Shown here piece after piece: positions 3,654 to 56,608 of a stretch of DNA of 64,000 nucleotides; position 1 is the stretch's first letter, and each line of letters opens with the position of its first letter. Under the pieces are notes generated by a model that ran no database searches, was not told the DNA's origin, and saw only the letters and a list, made by a program, of their open reading frames with translations. The stretch is from a virus: the IMG/VR virus record IMGVR_UViG_3300025096_003363, positions 1-64,000 of that record. One strand, 5' to 3'. A program made the translations under genes and the position numbers.

Positions 3654-5192
3654 TTAGAAGTACACTGACTGAGAAGCCGGAGTAAACGCAGTACCGAGTC
3701 CCTGAACAATAACTACATGGTAGTAGAGATCAGCCCCGAAGATGTTGTCAACAACACCATAACGAGTAAGCAAGCCAACACGTGGCGCGAAGTCGTTAGG
3801 ACCAATAGTTCTCTGAACCATGACAGGAATGTAAGGACAATAAATGATACCAGTGTCGTAGAACTCAGGACCTTTGTAACCAAGCAACGCATACTCGATG
3901 TTAGCAGTACCATTTGAGTCATACTGATTAACATTAGGATTGTTGTAGTAACTAGAGTTCTGAACCTCTGTTCTGGTATCACGGTAAACGTTGAATCTCC
4001 CACCGAGTGAACCAACCTTTGCAATACCAACAGGCTGCGTGTTAACATCACCCTGCACAGGCACCCACTGAAATTCAGGGAGCATCTCGAGGATGGCGCA
4101 AACACGAGGAGTAGCAACAACAAAGTTAGCTGCTCCACGTCTGTTACGTACGGCGATACGATTGGCTTCGATGATAAGACGTTGATAGAAGTCCCTATTA
4201 CGCTCGACCATCCAACGACCATCTGCAGAAGCAGGTGACCAGAGGGAGTAGCCTTTGTTCAGTCCAGCTCCGAGAGCCGACTGGATCATTCTCATGAGCA
4301 TTTCACGGTCGATCTCAGCCTGAATCTCATACGACATAGCGTTTGTGATCTCGGCGTCAATATCGATACCATTCATGTTCTTAAGATCTTGCTCAAGTTC
4401 GACAGACCAACGTGCGCCAAGACGGCGTGTGCCGGCCTCAACTGCTGTTTTCTCGAACTTAACCTCGACCTGAGGAATGTTACCAGTAATCTCGAAAGCG
4501 GAAAGAATCTGAGCGACACCTTTATCTTGCGCAGTGAAGGCCCAAGTTGAACCATCAGGAGTACCACTCAACCGTGTCGAAGACGTACCGGTGAAGCGGG
4601 TATCAAGAAGTTGGTATCCAAGTTCATCACCCGGAAGACCGGCAGCGCCATCATATATCTTGTTATCTCCTGCAATCGTTGGATGCGAACCAGGCGTAAA
4701 TCCTGGACCTGTAGTACCAGATCCAATAGGATTGGTAGTAGCATCACCAGTACCATCAGTACCGGCTCCAAGATAAGTAGACTCGTAAGCATAACGAAGA
4801 GCAAAAGCAAGTCCAACAGGACCTGACATAGGCTGGACACCAACGATTTCGTTAGTGATAAGCTCAGGGAACGTACGACGAATCATCGGGATAAGCACTT
4901 TAGGAAGACGAGCGTCACCAGGAGCATAATTATCATTCGACCCGGTAGTACCAGGCGGAGAGAATATGTTCGAAGTAGAAGCACCGCTACCGAAGGCTCC
5001 ACCGTGACCGGCGGAGTTTGCTTCTTCAATACACCACTTTTCCTGGTTCTCAAGAAGAATGGCGGTATTTAAACGGGTATGATCGTCTTCAATGGGCTTA
5101 ACACTATCAGAAGAATATTCAAGAACAGGTGCCCACTTCTCAAGAAGTGTATCTGCTCTATCTCTATCTATAAATGACTGTGGTTTGTTCAT
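3654..5192 (-). CDS. gp23: Major capsid protein (T4 gp23-like)
   Basis: LLEKWAPVL, ILLENQ, GVQPMSGPVGLAFALR, ELEQDLKNMNGIDIDAE, YCPYIP and TRYG motifs; putative maturation site IEE/A at residue 57. Confidence 0.97.
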   Translation of the reverse strand: MNKPQSFIDRDRADTLLEKWAPVLEYSSDSVKPIEDDHTRLNTAILLENQEKWCIEEANSAGHGGAFGSGASTSNIFSPPGTTGSNDNYAPGDARLPKVLIPMIRRTFPELITNEIVGVQPMSGPVGLAFALRYAYESTYLGAGTDGTGDATTNPIGSGTTGPGFTPGSHPTIAGDNKIYDGAAGLPGDELGYQLLDTRFTGTSSTRLSGTPDGSTWAFTAQDKGVAQILSAFEITGNIPQVEVKFEKTAVEAGTRRLGARWSVELEQDLKNMNGIDIDAEITNAMSYEIQAEIDREMLMRMIQSALGAGLNKGYSLWSPASADGRWMVERNRDFYQRLIIEANRIAVRNRRGAANFVVATPRVCAILEMLPEFQWVPVQGDVNTQPVGIAKVGSLGGRFNVYRDTRTEVQNSSYYNNPNVNQYDSNGTANIEYALLGYKGPEFYDTGIIYCPYIPVMVQRTIGPNDFAPRVGLLTRYGVVDNIFGADLYYHVVIVQGLGTAFTPASQSVYF

Positions 5193-5278: not shown

Positions 5279-6133
5279 TTATTTGTGAGTTCTTTTAAGT
5301 TCCTCCAAGTATGGATTAGATGAGTTCTCTTTTTTCTTCTCTGAAATCTTTGGTCGTGGGGCATCAGTTTTGACCTTTCGCTGTGTAAATGCCTCCTCTT
5401 TAATAACACTAAGTCTTTCTTTTTCCTTTTTATCAAAAAGCCTTTCTGTGTAATCAAAATTTTCTTCAATAAATTTTGGTGACTTATCATGAAGAATCTT
5501 TATCATATACTCTTTCTTTTTACCTGTTAAATGTGCAGTTTTAGACTCTAATACAAGATCTGCTTTTGTTTTAGTATATGCTTCTTTAAGAAGGTTATTT
5601 TCTTTTTTAAGCGCTGTAACTGTTTGTGACAACTCATCAATCTGTGTCTTACCGTCGACAACCGCCTCTTTAACAGACTCTGCCATAAGAGAAGAATCAA
5701 CAGCAAGAACCTTTCTTAAATTAGCAAGAACTTCACGTGATGTTCTGTTTTTGGTTGCTTCTTCAATAGCCTGTGTAGGTACAGCTTCATTAATATACTC
5801 TTCTAGGTAATCTGAAATACTTTCAACTAAAGTCGACTTGAACTTACTAGCTCTACCATTAAGCTCGCTTTCATAACGCTTTACAACAGTAATAAGCTTA
5901 TTGGCGTTGTTATGATCAACAGCTTCAACCACTCTTTTAAGTTTATTTGTATGATCTTTATCAATTGCGCCTACTAACTCCTCAAGTTTTTCAGCATAGA
6001 GCTCATCTTGATTCGTTAAAGCAGCTTCAACTGATAATTGAATTTTTTCTTCAATAGCAGTTTCAATTTCCTTAACAGACTCTTCTGTTAATACCTCTGC
6101 TGCTTGTTCTGGTAATGCTTTTTCGTTCTTCAT
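5279..6133 (-). CDS. gp22: Prohead core scaffold protein (gp22-like)
   Basis: Glu/Lys-rich coiled coil with the 'ISDYLEEYI' motif, located between the protease and capsid genes. Confidence 0.88.
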   Translation of the reverse strand: MKNEKALPEQAAEVLTEESVKEIETAIEEKIQLSVEAALTNQDELYAEKLEELVGAIDKDHTNKLKRVVEAVDHNNANKLITVVKRYESELNGRASKFKSTLVESISDYLEEYINEAVPTQAIEEATKNRTSREVLANLRKVLAVDSSLMAESVKEAVVDGKTQIDELSQTVTALKKENNLLKEAYTKTKADLVLESKTAHLTGKKKEYMIKILHDKSPKFIEENFDYTERLFDKKEKERLSVIKEEAFTQRKVKTDAPRPKISEKKKENSSNPYLEELKRTHK

Positions 6134-6293: not shown

Positions 6294-6959
6294 TTATATA
6301 GATTTAATAAAGCTAAGGATTCTGTCACGTAAAAAGGTATCAATCTCCTTTTTAGGGAGCTTTTCTAGTGATTTTTCGAAATTTTCGTATACTTCGGTGT
6401 ATTTATCATTACCAACAAGCACCCATTGCTTTGATTCTAAGATTCCATTTACAAATGCCTTGGGGTAGGATGGGTCTGCAACACAGTCAATAGCTACAAG
6501 TTTCATATTTTTTACAGTACTATGATCGCTACTCTCTTCAAGGGTTCCTAATGCGCGTGAAGACATACCAACTTTTACACCGTCGTTAATAAGAGATCTA
6601 ACTATTTGACCGCAGGGTGTAGATAAAACTTTTGATTTACCATAAAACACATTCCCGTCTTGCTTTAATTCGGTTACCATGTGGCAGGCTCTTTCTAGAT
6701 CAACATCTGCTGTAGTTGGGTGATTTAGCTCTCCCATTGCGCGACCAGGCTTGATCATCTCTTCAACATATCGTGTTGCTTCTCTCTCTAACTCGTCTAA
6801 TGGATAAAGCCGGTTGTTTTTGTTTACACCCTCAGCCATCATATAAGGGCCTTTTATATATAAATTGGAAGGGGAGTTTCTATCTACTTCTTCTTCAATG
6901 TATTCGAACTCATCGTTCACATCGGGTTTTTCCACAACCAAGTTAAGTTTTAACGCCAT
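6294..6959 (-). CDS. gp21: Prohead protease (gp21-like)
   Basis: NKNNRLYP, GELNHP, GMSSRALG and DCVADPS motifs. Confidence 0.95.
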   Translation of the reverse strand: MALKLNLVVEKPDVNDEFEYIEEEVDRNSPSNLYIKGPYMMAEGVNKNNRLYPLDELEREATRYVEEMIKPGRAMGELNHPTTADVDLERACHMVTELKQDGNVFYGKSKVLSTPCGQIVRSLINDGVKVGMSSRALGTLEESSDHSTVKNMKLVAIDCVADPSYPKAFVNGILESKQWVLVGNDKYTEVYENFEKSLEKLPKKEIDTFLRDRILSFIKSI

Positions 6960-33230: not shown

Positions 33231-33962
33231 ATGAGTGTTAAATCTGCGCGGCTGCGTCGGGTAAGCTCTTCTGATACTGAGCTTACAGAATCCCTTGAAC
33301 ATAATTGGTTGTTTAATTTTAAAATTAAGAGGCCTTTTTACTTTAACCCCAAACATCGCGAGTTCTATAACTGTGTTAAGAACCCTAAAACAAAAATGGG
33401 GTTTGTTGATGGGCCTGCAGGTAGTATGAAGACATATATTGCTGTATACGCCGGTTTAGAATTAATAAGAGAGGAGAAGTTCCAGCGACTGGTTTACATT
33501 AGATCTGTTACAGAATCCGCAGAGAGAAGCTTAGGGTCACTTCCGGGTGAAATTGATGATAAGTTTTCACCGTATTCAATTCCTCTTGAAGAAAAGATAA
33601 CTGAAATTGCTGATCGTGGTACATATGGTATGCTTAAGCAAAAGGGTGTTGTTGAGGCTATACCTGTTAACTTTGTTAGAGGTTTAACGTTTAACAAAGC
33701 TTTAGTTATTGTTGATGAAGCACAAAATTTATCTCGTAAAGAACTAACAACAATCCTAACTAGATTTGGAAGAGATACAAAATATATTGTAATTGGTGAC
33801 TGTAATCAAGCTGATGTAAATAAATCTGGGTATAAAGAAATATTTAACATGTTTAATAATAAACAATGTACGGATAATGATATATATTCCTTTAAGTTCG
33901 GGATCTCAGAAATAGCTAGAAGTAAGATACTTCGTTTTATTTGCTCTGTATTAGGAACTTAA
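33231..33962 (+). CDS. phoH: PhoH-family ATPase
   Basis: GPAGSMKT, LGSLPG, RGLTF, DEAQN, TRFG and GDCNQAD motifs. Confidence 0.92.
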   Translation: MSVKSARLRRVSSSDTELTESLEHNWLFNFKIKRPFYFNPKHREFYNCVKNPKTKMGFVDGPAGSMKTYIAVYAGLELIREEKFQRLVYIRSVTESAERSLGSLPGEIDDKFSPYSIPLEEKITEIADRGTYGMLKQKGVVEAIPVNFVRGLTFNKALVIVDEAQNLSRKELTTILTRFGRDTKYIVIGDCNQADVNKSGYKEIFNMFNNKQCTDNDIYSFKFGISEIARSKILRFICSVLGT

Positions 33963-34663
33963 TTACCCCAAGAAGTACCTTTAAAGGGATCACTAAAATT
34001 AGTGTCTCGATCTACATCACCACCTACACGAGCTGCTTTTGGATTTTCATTGGATGAATCATCCTTTGGCTGTATAGTAGTTGTTACCGGTCCTTCCTGA
34101 TCCACATCTGCAGAAGATTCCCTTTGTTGTTGCCAATCTTTCCAAGTTTTTTCGAATTCTTCATGTGTGACATATAGTTTACCACCTTCCTCATCAACAT
34201 ATGTTGTATTCTCAGTTAAGGGCTTTGTATAACTTGCCCAATTATCCCCATGCTCTGTTACAGTAACGTTTACAACAAAACATCTCCCTTCAGTAACTTC
34301 ATCAATCCACGTATCTGCAGTTTTAAAGACCCATTCTGCAAATCTTTCAACACCTACGCCACCATCCATAATTCTAAGTTGAATTATATTCTTTTCATGA
34401 AGTGTTTTAAAAGTATCTAATTCCGGATCATCACCTGCAACTACAGTAGTATGATCAAATTGATCTCGTAAAGCTTGTTTAAGATCATCTAACCCTCCAA
34501 AGTCAACACACCAGTTTTTATCATCTAATGATTTACAGCCAAAGGTAAATTTAGCTTTAAGTTGATATCCATGCAAATATTTACAGTGGCTATGTGATGC
34601 TCTCCATTGACGAAATGCTGCAGAGCCTAATTCAATTAGTTTTGACGATGTATAAACGCTCAT
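33959..34663 (-). CDS. queD: 6-carboxy-tetrahydropterin synthase-like protein with an acidic C-terminal extension
   Basis: FRQWRA..HCKYLHGY, VDFGGL, FDHT and E..AEW; about 90 extra C-terminal residues. Confidence 0.82.
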   Translation of the reverse strand: MSVYTSSKLIELGSAAFRQWRASHSHCKYLHGYQLKAKFTFGCKSLDDKNWCVDFGGLDDLKQALRDQFDHTTVVAGDDPELDTFKTLHEKNIIQLRIMDGGVGVERFAEWVFKTADTWIDEVTEGRCFVVNVTVTEHGDNWASYTKPLTENTTYVDEEGGKLYVTHEEFEKTWKDWQQQRESSADVDQEGPVTTTIQPKDDSSNENPKAARVGGDVDRDTNFSDPFKGTSWGN

Positions 34664-34750: not shown

Positions 34751-35956
34751 TTAACTGGAAAGCAGAGTCAACTGTCTTAGCAGATCTTTTTGATTAGTTC
34801 CTTCTTTAATGACCCCTTGCTTAATTAATCCCGCTTTAAGCTTATCAATTTCATCATCTTGTAACTTAACACTTTCATCTCTACCGGTAATCTTTACAAT
34901 TGTTTCTGTATTAATCTTTAGCGCAGGTGCTAATGTAGCCGCGGTAATAGGTGAATTTTTGTCTTTAAAAGTTTTTATAGTCACATCAAACGGAGACAGT
35001 TTAGGTTTACTTTCTTTCTTAGGTTGCTTTGCACCTCTTATAATAGCCGTTGGATCTCCCTCCCGGTATATATCACCAAGCTTTAAGCCATCTTTTGTTC
35101 GAAATATTTCTGCTACAAACATTCCCTCGTCGTAGTCTGATGGTGTATCTTCTTTCTTTTCTTTTGTTTCTGTAAACTCTATCTCATACCCCGGTTGAGC
35201 TTCTTGTAAAGTCTTTAACAACTCTATAATAACCTCATCATCTAAACTTTCTAAAAATTTTACTCGACCCATTTTCATGTAGTCAGAAAATTCCTCTTGC
35301 TCTTCATCAGGTAAATCAACAACCCCGAGTTCAGGCTTTCCTTTATATGTAAACTCCGGAATATTTGGACGCGCCTCTGTTATATACTTGAGAAAACCTT
35401 TCATGTTTTTACTGATATACTCAGTTACGTCCCTTGCGGAATCCTCCTTAACACCAGACTTAACTAAAGAACCAATGATTTGTTTCTTCACCGACCCCTT
35501 CTTACTAACAGGGTTATATTTTCCCTCTTTACTTCTAGACCCGGGACCATGCCCCATCGCCGCTCGAGCTTCCTTTATAGTACCGGCGTCAGCACCTTCA
35601 TATTCTCTTGTACCTTTATCATATAAGACACCCTGAAACGGAATTAGGGTTACAGTTTTTGGGCCGACAATTCTACCGAGGTAACCCTTTTTACCACTAG
35701 CTTGCTGCTTTGTAATACCCTTCTTATTAATTTTAACTATTTCTATGCTCGGGTCATTAGCTAGTTCCTTTTTAAGAACCGCGATCGGTTGTTCACCCTT
35801 ATAAGATTTCGTCATTCCCTTTACAAGCTTACCGGTATCAAGATTTATACCCTGTTGAGCGGCTTGCTTTACACCCGCTGCCGCGGCTTTCGCTATTCCA
35901 CGTATCTTATCTGAAAATCCCTCTTCAAGCAGCTCCTTTTGTGACAGTTTTGCCAT
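34751..35956 (-). CDS. Hypothetical late Lys/Glu-rich protein, putative internal head protein
   Basis: TAAATA lies 6 nt upstream of MAKLSQKELLEE; several I/L-x-E sites. Confidence 0.6.
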   Translation of the reverse strand: MAKLSQKELLEEGFSDKIRGIAKAAAAGVKQAAQQGINLDTGKLVKGMTKSYKGEQPIAVLKKELANDPSIEIVKINKKGITKQQASGKKGYLGRIVGPKTVTLIPFQGVLYDKGTREYEGADAGTIKEARAAMGHGPGSRSKEGKYNPVSKKGSVKKQIIGSLVKSGVKEDSARDVTEYISKNMKGFLKYITEARPNIPEFTYKGKPELGVVDLPDEEQEEFSDYMKMGRVKFLESLDDEVIIELLKTLQEAQPGYEIEFTETKEKKEDTPSDYDEGMFVAEIFRTKDGLKLGDIYREGDPTAIIRGAKQPKKESKPKLSPFDVTIKTFKDKNSPITAATLAPALKINTETIVKITGRDESVKLQDDEIDKLKAGLIKQGVIKEGTNQKDLLRQLTLLSS

Positions 35957-36005
35957 ATACAATATTTAGTCTTGAAAACAAAAATTAATATATATAATAT
36001 AAGAT

Positions 36006-36662
36006 ATGGATCGAACTAAAGTTACTAAATTACCGACGGCTAATGGTAATATGCCTCTAACAGGTGTAGAAAAGGAAGAAATTATTGAAGATGCAGCAAA
36101 GGCTTATGAGAAGTACCTAGATGCGCTTAGAATTGACTGGCGAAACGATCCTAATAGCGATAATACACCTAAAAGAGTAGCAAAAGCTTTTGTAACTGAC
36201 TTAGCTGCTGGTTGTTATAACGAACTTCCAAATGTTACAGCATTTCCATCAGATGGATACGATGGAATGGTGTTTCAAGGTGGTATTCCTGTTAAGTCAT
36301 TTTGTTCACACCACCATTTACCGTTTTCAGGTAGAGCTCATGTAGCTTATATACCGTCTCCGAGCGGAAAGGTCATTGGATTGAGTAAATTAAACAGAAT
36401 TGTTGAGCATTATGCAAGAAGACCGCAGATTCAAGAAGGTTTAACCATGCAGATTCATAAAGCTATTGATGAAATTTGTGAAGGTAATAAAGGAGTTGCT
36501 GTTATGATTTCTGCTACTCATACATGTGCTTGTCTAAGGGGAATTAAGCACGATGGGTGTGAAATGAAGACTAGTCGACTTAGTAGTGACTTTTTAGATG
36601 ATATTGCTACTAGAAATGAGTTTTATCAGTTTGTGTCTGACTGGAGAGGTCAATGTATCTAA
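36006..36662 (+). CDS. folE: GTP cyclohydrolase I
   Basis: [32 protein letters not shown] and HTCACLRG motifs. Confidence 0.96.
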
Positions 36663-37099
36663 TAAGATGCCTCTATTTCTTCATCAGCGATGTTTTCTTG
36701 ACTAACATCAATAAGAGCACCTAGCTCTTTTTCAATAAAATCCTTACTTACTAAGATTTTAAATAGGTTTGTAGATCTATCGCCTACTGAAAAGGGTATA
36801 TCTTTAAATTCCTTGTTGCCGATTTTAAGATCGAAGTTAACTACAGGTCTTTCTTCAGTATTACCAGCACCGACATTAATAACAATAGTATCTACCTTAT
36901 CCTTTATAAGATGTTTGTTGTTAACTGTCTTAAAAAGCACTTTATTACCCTGCACTTGTATATCTTCCCCATGAATAACGTTAAATGCACCGTTACCAGA
37001 GTCGAGTTTTGATGGAATTTTACCAATACCATCTACATCAAAGAACTCGATGAGTCCTAAGACTTGTTTTTCTAAAAAGAACCGGTTAAAATTTTTCAT
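36659..37099 (-). CDS. Retropepsin-like protease (RimK-associated 'ATP-dependent Zn protease'/RimB-like)
   Basis: KLDSG catalytic motif, EERPVV and GDRS..FKILV. Confidence 0.75.
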
Positions 37100-37123
37100 A
37101 GCAACTGCTATTTATGATTATGG

Positions 37124-37471
37124 TCAAGTGTTTTCAATATCCTCGTACCCTACATTAAATTGATCCACTACTTCAACTTCATCAACTACCTCTTCACCTA
37201 TATCTACCGCTACAGAGATAGTAGCACCAGCAGCTGTAGCTAATTCAGCTATAGCACCAATTGCCTGAGCGGCTATAACCGCTATATCTGGTGTCACGTT
37301 ACCACACTCTTCCGATTCAACCTCAGGGACCGGCATTTCATCACCCGTAATAAGAGGTCCCACGGCTCCAATAGAAGCAGTTTGTGCACCATGACCTAGA
37401 CCTATACTCTCCTGTACCTTATGGTAGGCGTGTTCTAGAAGTTGTTTCTCTTTACGCTTCTCATCTCTCAT
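37124..37471 (-). CDS. Hypothetical acidic late protein
   Basis: 115 aa; TAAATA 5 nt upstream. Confidence 0.65.
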   Translation of the reverse strand: MRDEKRKEKQLLEHAYHKVQESIGLGHGAQTASIGAVGPLITGDEMPVPEVESEECGNVTPDIAVIAAQAIGAIAELATAAGATISVAVDIGEEVVDEVEVVDQFNVGYEDIENT

Positions 37472-37479
37472 ACTATTAT

Positions 37480-38019
37480 TTATGCTAGTATGGCCTTTAT
37501 TTGATCTCTATCCTCAATGGATATTTCCTCGGGTACAAAATAATCTAACGCTTCGTCAATATCTTGCTGTATTATTTGTCTTGTCTCACTACCAGATATA
37601 CCTTCCTCCTGCATTGGTATCTTTACCACATTCACATAAGGGTACTTTTCAACATTATCCTGAAAATACTTGTATCGTTTAACATCCGCATCCTTTTCAC
37701 CCGCACCAACTAACAATGTTTTATCTAAATTTGCATCAGCGAAGTCGTAAACAGCCTTTACAGGGTTAGGTACATACACAACCTCTACATTCTTATCAAA
37801 ATATCTTGAGTATATCTTCCATATTTGTTCAGACTGCTCAGGTGTAATACCTTCACGCTCCTTACCACCAATAAATACGACACCTCTATCAGCATCATCA
37901 AGCAAATACCTTAAAGCATTAAAGTGACCCTTTGTAGGCGGTTTAAATCCACCGGGAAGCAGAGCGATTCGCTCAACTCTTGTCTCCATATCTTCAAAAT
38001 ATTCTATAAATGTCCTCAT
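37480..38019 (-). CDS. HxGH nucleotidyltransferase (cytidylyltransferase/NadD/CoaD-like)
   Basis: PGGFKPPTKGH and ISGSETR motifs. Confidence 0.85.
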   Translation of the reverse strand: MRTFIEYFEDMETRVERIALLPGGFKPPTKGHFNALRYLLDDADRGVVFIGGKEREGITPEQSEQIWKIYSRYFDKNVEVVYVPNPVKAVYDFADANLDKTLLVGAGEKDADVKRYKYFQDNVEKYPYVNVVKIPMQEEGISGSETRQIIQQDIDEALDYFVPEEISIEDRDQIKAILA

Positions 38020-39224
38020 GACCCGGGTTTATCTTTTTGAAAGTTAGCTGAACTAAAATCTAATCTGTTAACAAGCTTAACAGCATTACCATCTCTATCA
38101 ACCGCTACATATCCCTCTGGAGAAGTAACTCTCAACTTACCTTCACCCTCGTCGATAAAGTGTTTAGTGTTATAAACAGCATTATTGTACTTGTTAATAA
38201 AGATTTGCTTAGCCTGTGATAATAAACTACTAACCTTAAACAGATTAACTATGTCATCCTTTTGAGCTTGGAACTGAGCTGTTTTTTGCTTAAGAGTTTC
38301 TTCTAATCTTTGCTTTCCACGCTTAGATTTTCTCTTATCAACCTCTTTATTAATTCTAGTAGTATACCATTCAATAAAGTTTCTATAAGACTCTTCTGGA
38401 TCATTTAAGAACTTACCTTCTCGAATCTCCGTATTAATATAAGGGTTGAGAAGATCAGAAGGTAAGTCCTTGTAATCTATTTTGATTGAATCAGCGGTTT
38501 TTATTAAGTCTCTAACCTGCTTTACTTCATCTTTTGTTAAATTTACAACGCCTGTATCGTCTTTAAAGTAGGCATCATCAAACCAAACACCTGGAACCTG
38601 CTTCAACCGGTTAACTTTAGCACCAAACGCCGCCGGGCTGTCTAAATCGTTATATTCTGTATGGAATATGATACCAAACACGGAGTTAGCTATCTTTTTA
38701 CCTAGATCTGAATTAGCCTCTACTGCATATTTGATCGTATTAGGTTGAAATGTGTAATGAACTACACCATCTATGTTCTCTTTCTTAACCGATGAAGAAT
38801 CAAACATAAAATCACCCTGCATTATGTTCTTAATACCTAACTTAGGTAGATATTTTAAAGCCTTCTTAAGTTTATCCGCTAAACCAGGGGCATGCCCGTG
38901 ATTAACTTCAACATCTTGGTCATTATAGTTAATTTTAGGCTCTTTATTAAAGACAGCCTTAGTACCAACAAAGAATTTACCGGTATCAGGGTGCTTTCCA
39001 GCAAAGATAGCAGGGGCTCCATCCCATTTTACCGTAGTACCGATCTTTCTTTTACTCTTTCCTTGTAAATGGCCGAGTAAATTAGTTAAAAAGCCCCTAG
39101 CCTGGTCATAACCACCCTTACCTCTTGTAAGGATCAGTTCTTCTAAGTGTGTAAGGTGTGTATTAGCCTTAGCTTCCTCGATTAACTCTAAGTAATGTTC
39201 GAAATATAGTTTAAAGTTTTTCAT
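38016..39224 (-). CDS. ATP-dependent ligase-superfamily protein (covalent nucleotidyltransferase motifs)
   Basis: Motif I TVKWDG, motif III MQGDF, motif IV PEGYV and motif V VKLV. Confidence 0.65.
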   Translation of the reverse strand: MKNFKLYFEHYLELIEEAKANTHLTHLEELILTRGKGGYDQARGFLTNLLGHLQGKSKRKIGTTVKWDGAPAIFAGKHPDTGKFFVGTKAVFNKEPKINYNDQDVEVNHGHAPGLADKLKKALKYLPKLGIKNIMQGDFMFDSSSVKKENIDGVVHYTFQPNTIKYAVEANSDLGKKIANSVFGIIFHTEYNDLDSPAAFGAKVNRLKQVPGVWFDDAYFKDDTGVVNLTKDEVKQVRDLIKTADSIKIDYKDLPSDLLNPYINTEIREGKFLNDPEESYRNFIEWYTTRINKEVDKRKSKRGKQRLEETLKQKTAQFQAQKDDIVNLFKVSSLLSQAKQIFINKYNNAVYNTKHFIDEGEGKLRVTSPEGYVAVDRDGNAVKLVNRLDFSSANFQKDKPGS

Positions 39225-40592
39225 TTATTTTATTGTTAAGTTATAACCTCCGCGTCCCCCACCTGTATTAGGTGAAATAGTAATACTGTCACCTAATTCG
39301 AATAATTTCTGTATAGAGCTGGTTGCATATTCCCTGTAACCCTTTCCCTTAAAGGGGCCTATTGTTACCATGTTAAAGTTATCCTTATTAAAGAATAAAA
39401 AGTAATTAAAGCCTTGACCCTTTTCTTCTTCTTCTTTAAAATATTCTGCTATTTGAAACCCAGCAGCTATTTTACGGCCCTTTAACTCCGGATCACCAGC
39501 CGCATCTAAAAAGGAATCAATAATACTAACTGCACTATCTGGTTCAGATGAAAATTCCGACAAACCAGCTACTAATTTTTCACGTGGTGCTTTAGCAAAA
39601 AAACTATTTGTAATTATAGCCTCACCAGCATCTCTCATTTTAAGTTCTTCTCTTTGATCAGCTAAATATTTTGTTACATCAATACCTTTACTATCTTTTA
39701 TATTCTCAAAATAATCTCTACGCCGTACATCCTTTTCAACCAACTTTAACTTAGTCTCTAAATCGTAACTACTATTATCAATAACACTAATTACCCGGTC
39801 AACAACGCGTTGTTGTGCTGGAGCTACATTAAATTCGTAATCTTTTATAGCACTAAACACAGTCTGAATTATATTTTCATCTATATTGGCTTCTTTTAAT
39901 TGAAGTTTTGCAAATTTATTAAAGTTACGTATTAAACCTAACGTTTTTCCCTTACCCGGTCTACCTGCACCTGACTTGACCTCAACCAACGATCCATCTG
40001 GTAGTGTTATATCACCCTCTTTTGGATTTTTACCCTCTGAAAACAATGTTAAAACCGCCTCCCCGGGCCCAACTCCAACTGCCCCCTCTTCAAAAGTTAT
40101 CTGTGACATTAATTCGACAGCCTTTCTATTTGTTACATGCTTAAGATCGTATTTAGCTCCTAGTTTTTCAATTACACGTAAAAAATTAGCTGTTCCCTTA
40201 TTTAGCGCTTGTTGTAAATCTGATAATCTGTTTGAATTTTTTAAACGAGTTAATCTTTCTACTTCATCATAAAATTCTTCCCTAATACCCACGTTATCTA
40301 ATTGTATAGACTTAGCATATATGTCATTTATTCGAACACTTAAATTATAGATAGCCGAAGGGCTATCCCAACCCCCTGATTCAACCCAGTCGTTAATTAC
40401 ACCAATTGATGTATTCTGTTTACCTAATCTTAATAACTTTCTAGCTTCGTCTTGATCTATTTCAACCTCTTTAATATTACCATCGTCAAACTCTATAGTT
40501 ACTTTTGCTTCATCTAGTACATGAAGATGTTCACGAGGTGGAATATTACCACGTACCCGCTTTTTATAAACGTCTTCTAATGACCATTGCAT
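39225..40592 (-). CDS. Putative PD-(D/E)xK nuclease-fold protein
   Basis: GPGE...GDI..PDGSLVEVK motif. Confidence 0.55.
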   Translation of the reverse strand: MQWSLEDVYKKRVRGNIPPREHLHVLDEAKVTIEFDDGNIKEVEIDQDEARKLLRLGKQNTSIGVINDWVESGGWDSPSAIYNLSVRINDIYAKSIQLDNVGIREEFYDEVERLTRLKNSNRLSDLQQALNKGTANFLRVIEKLGAKYDLKHVTNRKAVELMSQITFEEGAVGVGPGEAVLTLFSEGKNPKEGDITLPDGSLVEVKSGAGRPGKGKTLGLIRNFNKFAKLQLKEANIDENIIQTVFSAIKDYEFNVAPAQQRVVDRVISVIDNSSYDLETKLKLVEKDVRRRDYFENIKDSKGIDVTKYLADQREELKMRDAGEAIITNSFFAKAPREKLVAGLSEFSSEPDSAVSIIDSFLDAAGDPELKGRKIAAGFQIAEYFKEEEEKGQGFNYFLFFNKDNFNMVTIGPFKGKGYREYATSSIQKLFELGDSITISPNTGGGRGGYNLTIK

Positions 40593-40594
40593 GA

Positions 40595-40939
40595 TTAGTG
40601 TGCGTCTACAGTTTCAAGCTCTTGTTCAACGGTCTCGTCAGAAAATTCAACTAACCTTTCTATTGTTTCAATAACCTTTCTAGGCTGTGTCCTCCCAAAC
40701 TCTTTGTTGACCTGTGCAGCAATGTTTATATCTTGCATATTAGGTGCATATATAAAGGCATTAGTCAACAGCTCAGCAACATATATTTCACCTTCTGGAG
40801 AAATGCCTGTTGGCGCTGGGGGAATATCTGCAACATCAGTAGCATCCGCTTCGACATCGACGTTAACGTCAACCTCCTCTACTTCATCCTGCTCAGAATA
40901 AAGCTCTTTATATTGTTCAAATAGTTTTAATGTTTTCAT
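40595..40939 (-). CDS. Hypothetical acidic protein, putative internal head protein
   Basis: MKTLKLFEQY N-terminus; Glu/Asp-rich. Confidence 0.6.
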   Translation of the reverse strand: MKTLKLFEQYKELYSEQDEVEEVDVNVDVEADATDVADIPPAPTGISPEGEIYVAELLTNAFIYAPNMQDINIAAQVNKEFGRTQPRKVIETIERLVEFSDETVEQELETVDAH

Positions 40940-40941
40940 AA

Positions 40942-41349
40942 TTATTGTTCTGTGGGTTCTGTGGCTTTATCTCTTATTGCTTGTTTTAACTCTTCTGTCT
41001 TCTTTTGAAAAACTGATACAGCGTCTTTTGCTACTCTCTGTCTTTCCTTTACAGCTTTTTTAGCGCCTCTAGCACCGGAAAACATACCACCTTGATTTGC
41101 TAATCTGTTAACCTCTCTATCAACATCATATTTCTCAGGCCCGGTTTGAATTTCTTGATCTTCCACAGGAATAAGCGGAACCTCTATACCACCAACACTA
41201 TCCTCAAAAGCTAAAAAATTCTCAAAAGGCGATCCAACACCAGATATTGCAAAACGTCTCATTACTTTACCATTAACATCCTTCAACTCTACAGTATATT
41301 TGTCCTCACCTGGTCGATTCTCTTCTAACAGTTTAAGAAACTTATTCAT
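40942..41349 (-). CDS. Hypothetical late protein, putative internal head protein
   Basis: MNKFLKLLEE N-terminus; TAAATA 5 nt upstream. Confidence 0.6.
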   Translation of the reverse strand: MNKFLKLLEENRPGEDKYTVELKDVNGKVMRRFAISGVGSPFENFLAFEDSVGGIEVPLIPVEDQEIQTGPEKYDVDREVNRLANQGGMFSGARGAKKAVKERQRVAKDAVSVFQKKTEELKQAIRDKATEPTEQ

Positions 41350-41357
41350 GTATATAT

Positions 41358-41870
41358 TTATGGAAGTAGTGAGAGTTTTATATTCACATTAGCAAGAAAC
41401 TCTTTCTCTAAGTGCTTTAGATCATATCTTTTAAGAAAGTTCCGAAAGTTTCTAAAAGACAATTGAGCCTCAGTAGGGCTTTTCCATACTTCATAGTCCT
41501 GTCCTTCAATAAATTCCCTAAATCCTACCTCATCATACTTAATTATACTCGGCAGCGTGTTAAAAATACGCCTTACAAGCTGATGTTCAATGACTTTTTT
41601 ATCCACCTTGTAATAAAACAGCTTTTTATGCTCTTTATCTATTTTAACAGCATGTATTATCTGCTTTAGTATAAAATGAATACCAAGCTTGTTTTTATCA
41701 TGTCGATTTAACCTTAAATCGTTTTCAACGAGGTGATAATTATACTCATTAAAGGATTTAGTTAAGAAATAATTAAGATTCATTATAGTCTTATGAATCT
41801 TCGGTACATAGAGATGGCTACTTTCGTCGTTTACCGATTCTAAGGTTGATGATTCCATTATAGTAGTCAT
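41358..41870 (-). CDS. Hypothetical protein (start uncertain)
   Basis: Up to 170 aa; fills the gap between its neighbours. Confidence 0.6.
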   Translation of the reverse strand: MTTIMESSTLESVNDESSHLYVPKIHKTIMNLNYFLTKSFNEYNYHLVENDLRLNRHDKNKLGIHFILKQIIHAVKIDKEHKKLFYYKVDKKVIEHQLVRRIFNTLPSIIKYDEVGFREFIEGQDYEVWKSPTEAQLSFRNFRNFLKRYDLKHLEKEFLANVNIKLSLLP

Positions 41871-42228
41871 CTCTTAACAATACTTCTTCTTTAAATTGTA
41901 ATCTAGCTTCGTAATAACTCAACTCCCACTTAGAATCACACCATCTAAGGATTTCGAACTTAAAATTACCTTTACCGAGTACACTTATATGCTCATTAAG
42001 CTGATTTGACGAAGAAGTGTACCCCTTCCAGTCAGTTTCGACTTCATACCGTCGTTTATTCTTCTTTCCCTTTAAAGGCGGTCGCTTTCTAATACACTTA
42101 CACTGCTTTTTACCAATATACTTCTTATCATTAGTAAGATTTGTTATCTTATAAATGAAACCGTAAGGTAAGTCCGTCCCTTCCTCGAGGATCCCCTCCC
42201 AATGTCCTAAATCACTCACTCTATCCAA
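41818..42228 (-). CDS. Stand-alone GIY-YIG endonuclease-like protein (Seg-like)
   Basis: GFIYKITN...KYIGKK, FKFEIL, YYE and YYN motifs. Confidence 0.8.
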   Translation of the reverse strand: MDRVSDLGHWEGILEEGTDLPYGFIYKITNLTNDKKYIGKKQCKCIRKRPPLKGKKNKRRYEVETDWKGYTSSSNQLNEHISVLGKGNFKFEILRWCDSKWELSYYEARLQFKEEVLLRDDYYNGIINLRIGKRRK

Positions 42229-42889
42229 ATACGCTTAACCACTCATCCGGTACTTTTGATAAATCTAATACCTTAGCCTGTATATTATCGTCTCCTAGTT
42301 CAACAGCTTTATGTAATCTATGATTACCATCTAATATCATATCATATTTACCACTATTCTTTGTAATAATAATAGGATACTTCAAATCAGCTTTCATAGC
42401 CCTATCATATGTAGACTTTACTTGCTCCGGAGTCTTATTAGGCTTGTGTCGTGTATGTATGTCTAAATGAGCGACACCCTCTACTGGGATAGAGATAACA
42501 GGCGATTCTAATTCCGCTAGCTTACTCTCTACATCCTGCATCGTGATGGTAAGCTTACCATCAGACCATGTGGTATCTTCGTACCCCGGGTGAGTATCCT
42601 CTTCTCCCTCTTCGCCAGTTAAAAACACCCCATCTATACCATCAGTTTCTTTCTTTTTCTTCTTTTTCTTACCAGTAGAACCTTTACGTGTTTGAACCTT
42701 ACCCTTACCCAACACTTTAGGCACTCTTGCATCACCTGGTGCGTATGTATCGCCGGAGTCAATAGTATCAGGTGGACTATAGACTGCATGTCCAGATGGG
42801 CCGTCACCAAATACACCACCAGCACCAGCTGTCATCGACTCTTTTAACATCTTAAAAAATAACTGTTCAAATCTACCACTTGATTCCAT
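42221..42889 (-). CDS. ParB/Srx-like domain protein with an N-terminal capsid-arm-like segment and a poly-Lys tract
   Basis: ADLKYPIII...ILDGNHRLHKA is ParB-like. Residues 18-60 match gp23 residues 58-100. TATAAATA lies upstream. Confidence 0.8.
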   Translation of the reverse strand: MESSGRFEQLFFKMLKESMTAGAGGVFGDGPSGHAVYSPPDTIDSGDTYAPGDARVPKVLGKGKVQTRKGSTGKKKKKKKETDGIDGVFLTGEEGEEDTHPGYEDTTWSDGKLTITMQDVESKLAELESPVISIPVEGVAHLDIHTRHKPNKTPEQVKSTYDRAMKADLKYPIIITKNSGKYDMILDGNHRLHKAVELGDDNIQAKVLDLSKVPDEWLSVFG

Positions 42890-42913
42890 TGTAACTATAT
42901 TTATAATAGTATT

Positions 42914-53312: not shown

Positions 53313-54449
53313 ATGGATAAAGATATTACTAGTGCATTGGATGCTATTGATAAAGTAAACCCCTTCGCAACTTATTTAGATAACAATTCACTCAGTCACG
53401 TTGGATCATGGATTGATACAGGATCTTATGTGCTAAACGCAATTATTTCCGGTTCAATTCACGGCGGAATACCTAAAGGTAGAGTAACAGTACTTGCCGG
53501 TGAGTCGATGACAGGTAAGTCGCTTTTTGTCCAAAAAATTCTAGCCAAGGCCCAGGAGGACGGGCTCGTCCCTGTTATCTTTGATACTGAAAATGCTATT
53601 GACCCGGAAGGAGCTGCAAGATTAGGGCTAGATATTAGCAAAGTTAAATATGTTCCTTGTACTAGTATTGAACAAACTCGTAATTCACTGTATAAGTTTC
53701 TTATGGTGGTAAAAGAAAAGGGACTAGAGGGTAAGTTTATTGTAGCTATTGACTCACTAGCTAATCTTCAATCAGAGCTTGAACTGTCGCGGATGAGTAA
53801 AGACAGTGTTAGTTCAGATATGGGTACAAAAGCGCGCGCAATGAAGACATTAATGCAAACTTGTACAAATTTAGGGTCAGTTACACAAACCACTATCCTA
53901 TGTACTAATCATGTCTATGATGACCCAACAGCTCTGTTTCCTTCTATTGAAAAAAATATGCCAGGTGGTAAATCATGCATTTATCTTCCATCAGTAACAG
54001 TTCAACTAGCACGCAAGCCAATGAAATCAGATGGCGGTAAGACTGTTGATGGGGAATTGGCAGTTGGTCAGAAAAAATACGCTGGAATTATTATTAGAGC
54101 CCTTACGCGTAAAAATAGATTTATTAAACAGTACCTTGAAGGTGAAATATACCTTTCATTTGCTTCTGGACTTGATCGCTACTATGGATTAGTTGATCTG
54201 GCCGTTGGTGTTGGTGCAGTAGTTCAAACTGGAGCAACTTATCAGCTTGAAGATGGTACTAAGCTAGGCTATTATAAGAATTGGAGGAAGGATGTTAAAC
54301 TTTGGGAAGAGACTATTCTTCCAAAACTTGAAGAACGAATTAAAGATGAGTGGTCTTATAGTAATAAAGAAGAAGAGCCACCTGATGAATTAGGTTTAGA
54401 TGGTTTAGATGATTTAATTAATGAAAAAGAAACTAGTACTGACTCTTAG
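53313..54449 (+). CDS. uvsX: RecA-like recombinase UvsX
   Basis: IDTGSYVLN, AGESMTGKS, FDTENA, IDSL, NHVY and GG motifs. Start corrected to 53313 because the longer ORF runs through the terminator. Confidence 0.93.
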   Translation: MDKDITSALDAIDKVNPFATYLDNNSLSHVGSWIDTGSYVLNAIISGSIHGGIPKGRVTVLAGESMTGKSLFVQKILAKAQEDGLVPVIFDTENAIDPEGAARLGLDISKVKYVPCTSIEQTRNSLYKFLMVVKEKGLEGKFIVAIDSLANLQSELELSRMSKDSVSSDMGTKARAMKTLMQTCTNLGSVTQTTILCTNHVYDDPTALFPSIEKNMPGGKSCIYLPSVTVQLARKPMKSDGGKTVDGELAVGQKKYAGIIIRALTRKNRFIKQYLEGEIYLSFASGLDRYYGLVDLAVGVGAVVQTGATYQLEDGTKLGYYKNWRKDVKLWEETILPKLEERIKDEWSYSNKEEEPPDELGLDGLDDLINEKETSTDS

Positions 54450-55179
54450 TGGGGGAATGGACTCATCTGTGCTGTTGTATATGGCACAAGATAGAGGCTA
54501 TGATCATATACATACCATAACCTTTGACTATGGTCAAAGGCATAAACAAGAACTCGCTTGTGTTAAAAAACAAATTAATAATTTTAATAACATGTTTAGC
54601 GGGTGGTTTAATTTAAAGATTACTAATAAGGTCTTAGATGTAAAGTATATTAAAGACATTGCGCCTACCTCATCTTTAACTAATAAAGATATTGATAATC
54701 CTAATATTAGCGAGATGGCAGGTGATGCACAGCCTGTCTCATACGTACCGTTTCGGAATTTAATGTTTCTATCTATTTGCTCGTCATATGCTGAAAGTGT
54801 AGGTGCAGATACAGTATGGTATGGTGCTGCACAGGTTGATTCACTAGCTGGGTATTGGGACGGTAGTGAAGAGTTTGTTAATGTAGTTAATGAAGTAACA
54901 GATCTTAATAGAGAGAACAGAATTAACATTGAAGCACCGCTTCTTGACATGTCGAAGGCTGCAATTGTTAAAGAAGGAATTAGACTAGGAGTTACATATG
55001 GTGATACATGGACATGCTATTCGAATAGAGAAGATGGGCTAGCTGATGCCACAACTCCGTCAAGTAGTATGCGAATAACGGGGTTTATTGATGCTGGGTA
55101 TGAAGACCCTATTCAATATGTCCAACAGGAAAAGTTGGATGACCTATACAAAGAAAATAACTGCAAGGAGTGTGCTTAG
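54421..55179 (+). CDS. queC: 7-cyano-7-deazaguanine synthase, variant lacking the CxxCxxC motif
   Basis: LSGGMDS, FDYGQRH..EL, YVPFRN and TWTCY motifs. Confidence 0.9.
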   Translation: MKKKLVLTLSGGMDSSVLLYMAQDRGYDHIHTITFDYGQRHKQELACVKKQINNFNNMFSGWFNLKITNKVLDVKYIKDIAPTSSLTNKDIDNPNISEMAGDAQPVSYVPFRNLMFLSICSSYAESVGADTVWYGAAQVDSLAGYWDGSEEFVNVVNEVTDLNRENRINIEAPLLDMSKAAIVKEGIRLGVTYGDTWTCYSNREDGLADATTPSSSMRITGFIDAGYEDPIQYVQQEKLDDLYKENNCKECA

Positions 55180-56591
55180 AGACCGTAGCGTCTAAGCTCT
55201 TCTAGCTGCCAGTGTGTCTTAGGCTTGTATTTTTCCTTAAATGACTGACTTTTAACTTCAGTCAGTTTATTACGTTTGTCAGAAGCTACTTGCTCGTTAA
55301 TATAACGGGAAGTATCGGTTTGATGTGAGTCGAGCATTGGACTGTAACTAAAGTCCTCTTCTAGTGTCTCTTCATTCTCTCCATTTAATTTCTTTTTTGC
55401 ATGCTCTCTTTTATCATCATCGACAAGAGCATCTAAAACATCTTCGTAATCGGTTGAAGGGATATAATCCTCCGGCTGCTCTTTAGTTAAGAAATGATCA
55501 AGCTCTAAGCCACCAAATTCATCATCCTCTTCATCACTGACATTTGCTCTAAACTGACATCTTTTTTTAGCTAACTTTGATGGAGGCGATGCACAATACT
55601 GACTCATTGACTCACCAGCTGCTTTTGCGGCTCTAGTTAAAGCGCCTTCTGTCCCCTTCTTCTTCATACCCTTAACTGCACCCTGAATCCAATCTTCATT
55701 ATCTTCTGGTGTAGTAAGACCACCTCCCTCTTCACCCATTGAATACTCATCAGGCATACCCTCCGGTTCGTCTATTCCATAACCCACTTGCTCATCTTCG
55801 TCTGGAGCCATAACAACAACTACACTATCACTAATTTTATCAACGTCTCTCTTTAGCGCTGCTTCAATCTTATCAATACCGTGTGCTATAACTGCTTTAG
55901 CAAGCGGCGTTCCAGGGTCAACTGAAAACTGTACAGTATCATTACTAATATCTAAACCATCCTCATTAGCATACTTAGAAACGATATTACCGACATCTTC
56001 AACACGCTCAGCATCTCTAATTTTAATCTCAATAAAGGTAGTTGGATCTGCTTTTGAATCTTCTAAGCTTTGCGCTAATTCTTGTTCTGCGTCATCCAAC
56101 TGACCAACTGTATCTTCAACCGCGTCCCCTACATCTGCACCTGCTTTAATATCCTTTGCGAGCTCTATAGCAGCTTTTTGCGCCGCGTATTTTTCTTCTC
56201 TTCCTCTATTAGTAGTAGCTCTATTAATATACGTCGCGAGACCGTCTTTTATTGCATCAGCAATCTCATCTTTACTTTTTTCAATTTCTCTTTCCTTAGA
56301 ATCTAATAAAGCTAATAAGTTATTCTTTTTAGCAGAAAACCCTGTACCCCTTTTCGCAGCATTCAATTCTTCATCACTAATTACCTCGAGATCATATAAT
56401 ACCGTTCTAATAAAGTTAATTGTATCTAATGGTGCAGAACTAAACCCCGCAGATCTTAGCTCTCTTGTAACAGGACCGAAAGAAGGGTGATATTTTTCAT
56501 AAGGAGATTTTTTAGCTTCCTCGAGAAACTCTGACCTGTTGAATAAATCATTAAAGCCACTAAAATTGTCGGTGTAGTTAAAGGAACTCAT
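55176..56591 (-). CDS. Hypothetical acidic late protein, putative internal head protein
   Basis: 471 aa; TATAAATA 6 nt upstream; FLEE/A site near the N-terminus. Confidence 0.65.
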   Translation of the reverse strand: MSSFNYTDNFSGFNDLFNRSEFLEEAKKSPYEKYHPSFGPVTRELRSAGFSSAPLDTINFIRTVLYDLEVISDEELNAAKRGTGFSAKKNNLLALLDSKEREIEKSKDEIADAIKDGLATYINRATTNRGREEKYAAQKAAIELAKDIKAGADVGDAVEDTVGQLDDAEQELAQSLEDSKADPTTFIEIKIRDAERVEDVGNIVSKYANEDGLDISNDTVQFSVDPGTPLAKAVIAHGIDKIEAALKRDVDKISDSVVVVMAPDEDEQVGYGIDEPEGMPDEYSMGEEGGGLTTPEDNEDWIQGAVKGMKKKGTEGALTRAAKAAGESMSQYCASPPSKLAKKRCQFRANVSDEEDDEFGGLELDHFLTKEQPEDYIPSTDYEDVLDALVDDDKREHAKKKLNGENEETLEEDFSYSPMLDSHQTDTSRYINEQVASDKRNKLTEVKSQSFKEKYKPKTHWQLEELRRYGL

Positions 56592-56608
56592 TTAATATAT
56601 TTATATCT

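Follow-up and report, generated by a model that had tools for sequence, protein, structure and literature searches.

Leaders resembling T4 capsid-targeting sequences precede predicted enzymes in a late gene cluster of a marine T4-like phage

The window analyzed here, positions 1 to 64,000 of the IMG/VR virus record IMGVR_UViG_3300025096_003363, is a 64-kb part of a 98.8-kb single-contig genome that encodes 109 predicted proteins and, judged by its gene repertoire, belongs to a marine T4-like myophage. In a cluster of predicted late genes at 36.6-42.9 kb, four genes, coding for proteins of 146, 179, 402 and 114 residues, begin with leaders whose similarity to the capsid-targeting sequences of phage T4 exceeds chance. 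The T4 capsid-targeting sequence is a textbook mechanism, described for the most part in the small internal proteins of coliphages. We propose that the leaders in this cluster probably bind the scaffolding core, bring the attached proteins inside the prohead and are cut off by the gp21 homolog, as in T4, and that the enzymes among these proteins then leave the head with the DNA.

The test motif was built from T4 itself, so that the examples listed in the first-pass annotation of this stretch were not tested against their own motif. From the T4 record (NC_000866), we took the leaders of IPII and IPIII (MKTYQEFIAE/A, the slash denoting the cleavage position) and of IPI (MKTFKEF...ITE/A), and residues 1-7 of all 109 N-termini of the contig were scored with BLOSUM62 against the IPIII and IPI leaders. 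The 179- and 114-residue proteins scored 23, the 146-residue protein 22 and the 402-residue protein 21. The runner-up among the 109 genes scored 13, and no early or replication gene scored higher than that, in agreement with the expectation that the motif is enriched in late over early genes. When the null model was derived from the residue frequencies at each N-terminal position in the 99 genes that lie outside the cluster, a score of at least 21 was expected for 0.28 genes, and the probability of finding four or more is ~2e-4. The four top scorers lie within six consecutive genes, an arrangement that four random genes out of 109 would show with a probability of <3e-4 (union bound).

The first-pass annotation, all of whose quoted open reading frames (ORFs) and N-termini are present in the window, had described about nine proteins with similar, T4-like capsid-targeting leaders. 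The likeness to T4 is borne out: the leaders of the four top scorers match the T4 sequences, those of the 146-, 179- and 402-residue proteins stand ahead of recognizable domains, and the window encodes a gp21-type protease. The similarity further extends to the 135-residue protein (MNKFLKLLEE), which conforms only to a relaxed pattern, one that is not matched by any gene outside the cluster. The 403-, 222-, 455-, 115- and 471-residue proteins lack a T4-type leader, and three of those that had been grouped with the others (403, 222 and 471 residues) share just a hydrophobic-x-Glu triplet that occurs by chance in about a third of N-termini. The count of about nine is too high for a single motif: four or five proteins possess T4-type leaders, and two to four more have other conserved leaders. 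With respect to the spacing of the L/I-x-E cleavage motif, a short motif that is prone to chance matches, E10 is exact in the 146-residue (F-L-E10) and 135-residue (L-E-E10) proteins; in the 179- and 402-residue leaders, Glu is at position 9, and the latter additionally contains LIEE/A at positions 14-17.

The motif ATAAATA, the apparent late promoter, occurs 44 times on the contig, and 20 of the copies end 5-11 nt before a start codon, compared with 0.44 expected from their density. The genes that start in this manner include those for the portal, gp3, neck and tail-fiber proteins along with the 146-, 115-, 135-, 222- and 471-residue proteins; the motif ends 9 nt upstream of the start in the case of the 146-residue gene and 5 nt upstream in the case of the 135-residue gene. 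The 135-, 114-, 455-, 402- and 179-residue genes follow one another in this order with gaps or overlaps of 0-4 nt and therefore appear to form one late operon, at the end of which an ATGA overlap couples the start of the 179-residue gene to the stop codon before it. Transcription from late promoters, either directly or by way of an operon, had been noted in the first-pass annotation and is upheld by these counts; the cluster genes are predicted in silico to be late, together with the head genes. Because ATAAATA is located 5-11 nt from the start and no Shine-Dalgarno sequence is evident, the late mRNAs may be leaderless or nearly so. Between the 222- and 135-residue genes, the late operon accommodates two passenger genes without leaders, for a 170-residue protein and a 136-residue SegE-type GIY-YIG homing endonuclease; the pair recurs in many related loci and is probably a mobile insertion.

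Among the proteins with T4-type leaders, the 179-residue protein is a predicted nucleotidyltransferase of the HxGH family with the motifs GGFKPPTKGH and ISGSETRQ. It matches the cytidyltransferase family phrog_3041 (E 1.3e-4) and, weakly, a PPAT structure (3nd5, E 0.005, from residue 16) and the NMNAT of M. jannaschii (1f9a, E 0.3); a Pfam search gave no match for this protein. The 402-residue protein belongs to DUF6267 (PF19782, E 2.3e-98, 330 bits at a cut-off of 27, residues 21-399) and is a candidate ligase-like covalent nucleotidyltransferase. This designation rests mainly on the motif K66-W-D-G69, which is invariant in 24 aligned sequences, because the fold matches lie in the noise. The AF2 model (pLDDT 73; residues 1-24 of low confidence) yielded no Foldseek match at E <= 1e-3, with T4 Rnl1 and Trl1 among the weak rows; the best RNA ligase rows in VIA-align, 5cot (Z 5.8 over 181 residues) and 2hvq (Z 5.3 over 163 residues), are within the noise; and a phmmer search against PDB sequences returned noise only. 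For the 146-residue protein, the similarity to PF05618 ('Zn_protease') is below the cut-off (E 9.6e-05, 22.8 bits against a cut-off of 27), and the alignment with PDB entry 9g58 (E 0.024) starts from residue 10 and places LDSG opposite LDTG. The 114-residue protein could be cargo or, like T4 gp67 and gp68, a prohead-core component. When residues 1-45 of the 135-residue protein were modeled in a complex with the gp22-like scaffold (two copies), the score was 0.10 (mark 0.34), which is counted neither way.

To follow the leaders in relatives, IMG/VR was scanned with the DUF6267 protein, which yielded 80 related loci with 1006 genes. The nearly invariant leader positions in orthologs are 4, 7, 8 and a Glu at 9 or 10, and positions 3, 5 and 6 vary. 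In the family of the 146-residue protein (23 orthologs), F4 and F/Y7 are present in 23/23 and F8 and E10 in 22/23 sequences; in the 402-residue family, F4 is found in 34/37 and Y/F7 in 37/37; in the 179-residue family, F4 and Y7 are each found in 23/25; and among the 14 orthologs of the 135-residue protein, F4, L5 and L7 are invariant, with E10 in 13. These positions coincide with those identified by the genetics of T4 IPIII, where 4 and 7 are involved in targeting, and 8 and 10 in processing (reviewed in PMC9026906). Variation at 3, 5 and 6 combined with constancy of 4, 7, 8 and Glu fits selection on the peptide rather than on codons. Mean pairwise identity is also higher in the leader than in the body of several families (0.80 vs 0.41 for the 135-residue, 0.59 vs 0.43 for the 114-residue, 0.67 vs 0.17 for the 455-residue and 0.53 vs 0.33 for the 222-residue protein), and a leader that outlasts its body is the pattern of the hypervariable internal-protein loci of T4.

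The boundaries of the domain matches, which start at residue 16 in the 179-residue protein (PPAT-like), residue 10 in the 146-residue protein (PF05618-like) and residue 21 in the 402-residue protein (DUF6267), all fall after the leader. Distant HxGH homologs begin at IALLPGG, without a leader; the DUF6267 and HxGH proteins of cyanophage P-HM2 begin directly with the domain, and the DUF6267 protein of S-SM1 has no leader either. Other DUF6267 homologs start with MKTLKQYITE/QKKANTHL or MKTFKQYLITE/A, still closer to T4, and some orthologs match T4 in six or seven of the seven residues (MKTFKEYFE compared with MKTFKEF of IPI). As judged from these alignments, the leaders are add-ons ahead of recognizable domains. 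Altogether, T4-type leaders were detected in 101 of the 1006 genes in the 80 loci, in 12 families. Those beyond the families of the window include proteins of 107-168 residues (MKTFREYFEENKAV) in the slot after DUF6267 and two proteins that resemble internal proteins, a highly basic one of 156 residues (MKSFKYYFFE/AKEAPKGK) and a Lys/Gly-rich one of 66 residues.

Two arrangements in the relatives can be noted separately. In distant relatives (L068, L067, L049, L051, L080 and others), a leaderless N-terminal HxGH domain and a C-terminal DUF6267 domain are encoded in one frame of ~1000-1400 residues, and the junction (...WWKEQLTEVITE/TKANTHL) has a pair of L/I-x-E motifs precisely where the two domains meet; this fusion may be a polyprotein cut by the head protease. 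In the cultured Pelagibacter phage HTVC008M (L001), the same cluster follows gp41, with a 596-residue HxGH protein that starts MKTLKELL and a 137-residue protein that starts MKSFKDFQ; HTVC008M is therefore a tractable isolate for work on the leaders, and Methylophilales phage Melnitz is another cultivable relative with leaders of this kind.

Evidence from virions is available for cyanophages. In P-HM2 and S-SM1, the DUF6267 gene (T4-GC71) is followed by a gene annotated as 'cytidylyltransferase' (T4-GC190), the same order as that of the 402- and 179-residue genes. In purified S-SM1 virions, 41 proteins were detected (Table S8 of Sullivan et al. 2010, PMC3037559), six of them from the syntenic cluster, namely GC190, GC1453, GC1454, GC1455, GC425 and GC426; the peptide count of GC190 was 25, that of the portal 18 and that of GC1455 7 (PMC3037559). 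We reassembled the S-SM1 record and scored every ATG-initiated ORF against the T4 leaders. The only annotated N-termini with a score of at least 20 were those of GC190 (MKKFSAFLNE/AERS), whose 10-residue leader is a perfect example of the T4 type, and GC1455 (MLSFKELQEKK). The two proteins were both detected in virions, which would happen by chance with a probability of ~0.03 (41/234 detected). The virions of S-CREM2 also contain a cytidylyltransferase, for which the authors propose carriage into the host (PMC10665884). There is no mention of a leader in either PMC3037559 or PMC10665884, and a full-text literature search for 'capsid targeting sequence' together with cyanophages found nothing linking them except a T4 review. 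The virion proteomics of cyanophages supports head loading.

Two other proteins of the cluster contain conserved N-terminal modules of different kinds. In the 455-residue protein, a 28-residue block (MQWSLE...HL.VLGE/A) stops exactly at L-x-E, and the bodies that follow are barely alignable. Residues E178, D194, E204 and K206, which form a PD-(D/E)xK-type signature, are invariant in 13 very divergent homologs, making this protein a nuclease-like (PD-(D/E)xK-like) candidate. No relevant Pfam family was found for the members of the alignment, the AF2 model from the 13-sequence alignment (pLDDT 42) is unusable, and the nearest named atlas clusters, type II restriction endonucleases at just 0.77-0.78, are a lead only. 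The 222-residue protein, which matches phrog_17560 and a ParB-like phrog, contains a copy of the N-terminal arm of the major capsid protein (MCP): its residues 14-60 align with residues 54-100 of the MCP of the same phage with 55% identity over 47 residues (E 3e-14). The alignment begins at CIEE/A of the capsid protein and directly after ...MLKE/S in the 222-residue protein. In S-SM1, GC426 copies residues 55-75 of its own MCP (57% identity over 21 residues) after LTE/T. A BLAST comparison of the 222-residue protein with S-SM1 GC426 was not significant (E 0.49), and on these alignments the parallel is that each protein copies the MCP arm of its own phage, as opposed to detectable homology. In both phages the copy follows the sequence of the cognate capsid protein, which speaks for a function of the arm in the setting of the capsid; the copies and their capsids seem to co-evolve.

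The remaining candidates are less clear-cut. In the family of the 115-residue protein, mean pairwise identity is 0.69 in the conserved leader vs 0.39 over the next 40 residues, and the protein is possibly a prohead-core component; together with the 114-residue protein, it may be a functional analog of the T4 core proteins gp67 and gp68 rather than an effector. The 403-residue protein is a weak candidate for head loading. The start in the ORF list is a TTG two codons before an ATG; the ATG start gives MAKLSQ..., which is kept in its three orthologs, the only ones found, and an HK97-gp10-like match is below threshold. The 471-residue ORF, which the first-pass annotation had included on account of an FLEE/A motif, has a low T4-derived score, and no phage tblastn match, Pfam family or atlas lead was obtained for it. 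It was dropped as a member given the lack of homolog, family or leader support, and its identification with T4-GC15, a virion protein of similar size, was rejected for want of sequence support.

Binding to the core, cleavage of the leaders, packaging by this phage, ejection and whatever role the proteins have in the host are inferences. Under the model that we consider probable, the late cluster would encode proteins that are loaded into the prohead, four or five of them with a propeptide of ~9-19 residues of the form M-K/R-x-F-x-x-F/Y-F/L-(x)-E. Binding to the scaffolding core would fall to the hydrophobic residues 4 and 7, and the gp21-type protease, presumed to be the enzyme that would take the leaders off, would cut at the hydrophobic-x-Glu at positions 8-10 or at the following L/I-x-E/A. 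Cutting would free the retropepsin-like protein, the HxGH nucleotidyltransferase, the DUF6267 ligase-like protein and the small acidic and other proteins inside the head. The PD-(D/E)xK-like protein would enter by means of its own 28-residue module ending in L-x-E/A, and the ParB/Srx-like protein by means of its copy of the capsid N-terminal arm. The enzymes would then probably be ejected with the DNA and become active ahead of phage transcription; for the small acidic members, a fate as degraded core components is more likely.

The closest known system is the capsid-targeting sequence of T4 IPI, IPII and IPIII (Mullaney and Black 1996; summarized in PMC9026906). The present leaders resemble it as putative N-terminal propeptides of 10-19 residues beginning with M-K-T-F/Y, in which residues 4 and 7 are hydrophobic or aromatic; a hydrophobic-x-Glu triplet at 8-10 with Ala, Ser or Gly behind it may be a further similarity. 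In both cases, the genes are late (by prediction in the present phage), the genome encodes a gp21-type protease, and a conserved leader is attached to interchangeable, fast-evolving bodies. However, the bodies here are enzyme-sized (nucleotidyltransferase, ligase-like, protease-like) or acidic, whereas those of T4 are small, basic and DNA-associated; in the leaders of this phage, Glu is often at position 9 and P3 is often Phe or Tyr. A second parallel is T4 Alt, the head-packaged, injected ADP-ribosyltransferase that is processed by gp21. Alt resembles the proposed cargo in being a head-carried enzyme that is trimmed by the prohead protease, delivered with the DNA and active before phage transcription, but it has a different N-terminus (MELITE/L in the T4 record) and another enzyme fold, and the present cluster encodes no ADP-ribosyltransferase. 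The cyanophage cytidylyltransferase T4-GC190, found in purified virions (PMC3037559, PMC10665884), is of the same HxGH family and is likewise encoded directly after the DUF6267 gene; the predicted 179-residue protein is shorter, and the published work ties packaging to no leader. In the giant phages phiKZ and SPN3US, many head proteins, including the virion RNA polymerase that is delivered to the host, are cut after Glu by a gp21-related protease, but the propeptides of the ejection proteins, which are cut at S/A-x-E, are longer (mostly >100 residues) and unrelated in sequence, and have a small P3 residue (PMC5694885).

Several observations weigh against the head-loading model. A cruder column shuffle in which the cluster genes were kept in the null was only marginal (P = 0.066), hydrophobic-x-Glu triplets are common by chance, Glu is exactly at position 10 only in the 146- and 135-residue leaders, and P3 is often Phe or Tyr, not Leu or Ile as is typical for T4 gp21. 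The enrichment in S-SM1 rests on two proteins, DUF6267 (T4-GC71) is not among the 41 S-SM1 virion proteins, and the authors of the S-CREM2 study note possible carry-over of highly expressed proteins (PMC10665884). Because the DUF6267 and HxGH proteins of P-HM2 are leaderless and GC71 of S-SM1 was undetected, the leader is neither necessary nor sufficient across the family. Some of these points are what would be expected if the N-terminus had no targeting role and were a scar of recombination or duplication, the result of a translation-initiation bias toward A/T-rich codons after the ATG, or an amphipathic helix. The enzymes would then function late in the cytoplasm, where the ends of DNA or RNA might be their substrates while packaging is under way, and contamination would account for their detection in virions. 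Besides the marginal shuffle, the leaderless homologs that work in P-HM2 and the carry-over raised for S-CREM2, this explanation draws on the 35% GC content of the genome, which favors Lys, Asn and Phe codons. We nevertheless regard it as rather unlikely: the pattern of conserved and free positions in the orthologs speaks for selection on the peptide and not on codons, 13 is the highest score of any other gene on the contig, the match to T4 in some orthologs covers up to six or seven of seven residues, and the sole two leader-bearing proteins of S-SM1 are both in the virions.

A slightly better case can be made, although we still consider it unlikely, for the leader proteins being accessories of the prohead core or scaffold, like T4 gp67, gp68 and gp22, which would assist in head assembly and then be degraded by gp21, and not effectors. 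The core proteins use the same leader and cleavage logic, no clear homolog of gp67 or gp68 was found between the portal and gp21 genes, where the sole ORF is of 48 residues, and the 114- and 115-residue proteins are small and, with an isoelectric point (pI) of 4.1, very acidic, in the manner of T4 gp67, which has an acidic tail. This explanation is most plausible for the acidic members. In contrast, enzyme-type domains (HxGH, KxDG, retropepsin-like) in three of the members are unexpected for scaffold parts, and the HxGH ortholog stays in mature S-SM1 virions, where its peptide count surpasses that of the portal. The payload of effectors envisaged in the first-pass annotation is supported in part: the leader proteins include enzyme-type domains, but two or three of the members are small and acidic and look more like prohead core. 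The least probable alternative, in our estimation, is that the proteins are packaged and remain in the capsid or at the portal, where they would process DNA ends or protect or condense 7-deazaguanine-modified DNA, without being ejected. The nuclease-like, ligase-like and ParB/Srx-like domains are all DNA-directed, and the capsid-arm copy, as an anchor of the ParB-like protein, suggests retention in the shell; against this, the T4 proteins with a capsid-targeting sequence are delivered into the host (reviewed in PMC9026906), and nothing in the sequences argues for retention.

The head-loading model can be extended to a bolder and, taken as a whole, doubtful proposal, to which we would give about the same weight as to the core-accessory explanation, or marginally less. 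Marine T4-like phages might use a modular head-loading code, consisting of the T4-type leader, the second, 28-residue leader and copies of the capsid N-terminal arm, to carry an enzyme kit into the host with the DNA. The kit might comprise a PD-(D/E)xK nuclease, a ligase-like protein, an NMNAT/PPAT-like nucleotidyltransferase and a protease-like protein. Once injected, the nuclease might attack unmodified host DNA while the 7-deazaguanine-modified phage DNA is spared, and the nucleotidyltransferase and ligase pair might counter NAD- or RNA-targeting defenses before phage gene expression.

The coordinates of the cluster genes and of other features mentioned here are collected in Table 1. Apart from the gp21-, gp22- and gp23-type genes, the window contains genes for a gp4-like head-closure protein, the portal, gp3 and UvsW, and the leader cluster is flanked by the genes for UvsY, a helicase and UvsX and by a queuosine-type folE, queD and queC. 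Of these, folE and queD, which are interspersed among the late genes, have promoters of the sigma-70-like type. The set of queD, folE and queC indicates that the phage DNA is probably 7-deazaguanine-modified, which matters if a nuclease is packaged. A megablast search of the cluster against 50,697 phage records gave no DNA-level match, kin being visible at the protein level only; the nearest isolates by protein are Pelagibacter phage HTVC008M, the Methylophilales phage Melnitz group and T4-like cyanophages. The MCP has a putative maturation site (..CIEE/ANSAG), which can only be suggested because a MAFFT alignment with T4 gp23 leaves CIEE/A unaligned with LTE/A of T4. Outside the window, the contig encodes a very acidic protein of 145 residues (pI 4.3), which starts MTKFERRFFKSLNE/Q behind a CTAAATA motif. 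Its N-terminus resembles the leader of the 222-residue family ([KR]FE..FFK.L.E), and it may be a further prohead-core or cargo protein.

Table 1. Features of the leader cluster, head genes and related loci; positions are those of the window unless another record or locus is named
Feature	Location	Strand	Remarks
gp23-type MCP	3654-5192	-	phrog_138, E 1.6e-82
gp22-like scaffold	5279-6133	-	adjoins gp23 and gp21 genes
gp21-type prohead protease	6294-6959	-	phrog_207, E 2.8e-55; GELNHP common to T4 gp21
queD-like PTPS	33959-34663	-	
403-residue Lys-rich protein (401 residues from ATG)	34751-35962	-	starts MAKLSQKELLEE/G; behind CTAAATA motif
GTP cyclohydrolase I	36006-36662	+	
146-residue protein	36659-37099	-	ten-residue leader followed by K, then retropepsin-like (PF05618-like) domain, DSG motif; own late promoter
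115-residue acidic protein (pI 4.1)	37124-37471	-	conserved 22-residue N-terminus MRDEKRKE..LLEHAY; own late promoter
179-residue predicted HxGH (TKGH) nucleotidyltransferase	37480-38019	-	leader MRTFIEYFEDME...
402-residue DUF6267 protein	38016-39224	-	leader MKNFKLYFEHYLELIEE/AKANTHL
455-residue protein	39225-40592	-	conserved 28-residue N-terminal module MQWSLE...HLHVLDE/A, then very divergent body
114-residue strongly acidic protein (pI 4.1)	40595-40939	-	leader MKTLKLFEQYKELYSE/Q
135-residue protein	40942-41349	-	leader MNKFLKLLEE/N; first gene of the late operon ending with the 179-residue gene
Two leaderless passenger genes (170 and 136 residues)	41358-42228	-	PF19835, E 2.1e-30, for the homing endonuclease
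222-residue protein	42221-42889	-	...FFKMLKE/S, copy of MCP N-terminal arm, Lys-rich linker, ParB/Srx-like domain (DGNHR)
queC	54421-55179	+	
471-residue late protein	55176-56591	-	FLEE/A; late promoter
ATAAATA late-promoter copies	37109-37115, 37477-37483, 41355-41361, 42898-42905, 56598-56605		TATAAATA at 42898-42905, by the 222-residue gene
145-residue acidic protein	G000:C1:65792-66229	-	outside the window
Further tagged families in relatives	L026, L027 at about 4827; L036 at about 11169; L023, L027, L034 at about 9208		
HTVC008M cluster	KC465899, 95890-115032		L001
S-SM1 GC426	NC_015282, 152805-153353		
S-SM1 MCP	NC_015282, 113308-114684		

The class of mechanism is known from the T4 capsid-targeting sequence and Alt, and virion-borne cytidylyltransferases have been published. 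Three points appear to be new in the searchable literature: a connection of the capsid-targeting sequence with the virion cytidylyltransferases of marine T4-like phages, the presence of such a tag on natural cargo of enzyme size, and the combination of the T4-type leader with two further entry modules, the 28-residue leader and the capsid-arm copy. The Kyanoviridae and their relatives are among the most abundant viruses of the sea. If the head-loading model is correct, it would provide a mechanism behind the repeated and unexplained finding of 'cytidylyltransferases' and other non-structural proteins in cyanophage virions. The injected proteome of uncultured ocean phages could then be predicted by a simple rule at the sequence level, and foreign proteins could be loaded into marine phage heads with the leader as a natural handle. 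The model would also point to a layer of pre-transcriptional host takeover or counter-defense in globally abundant virus-host systems.

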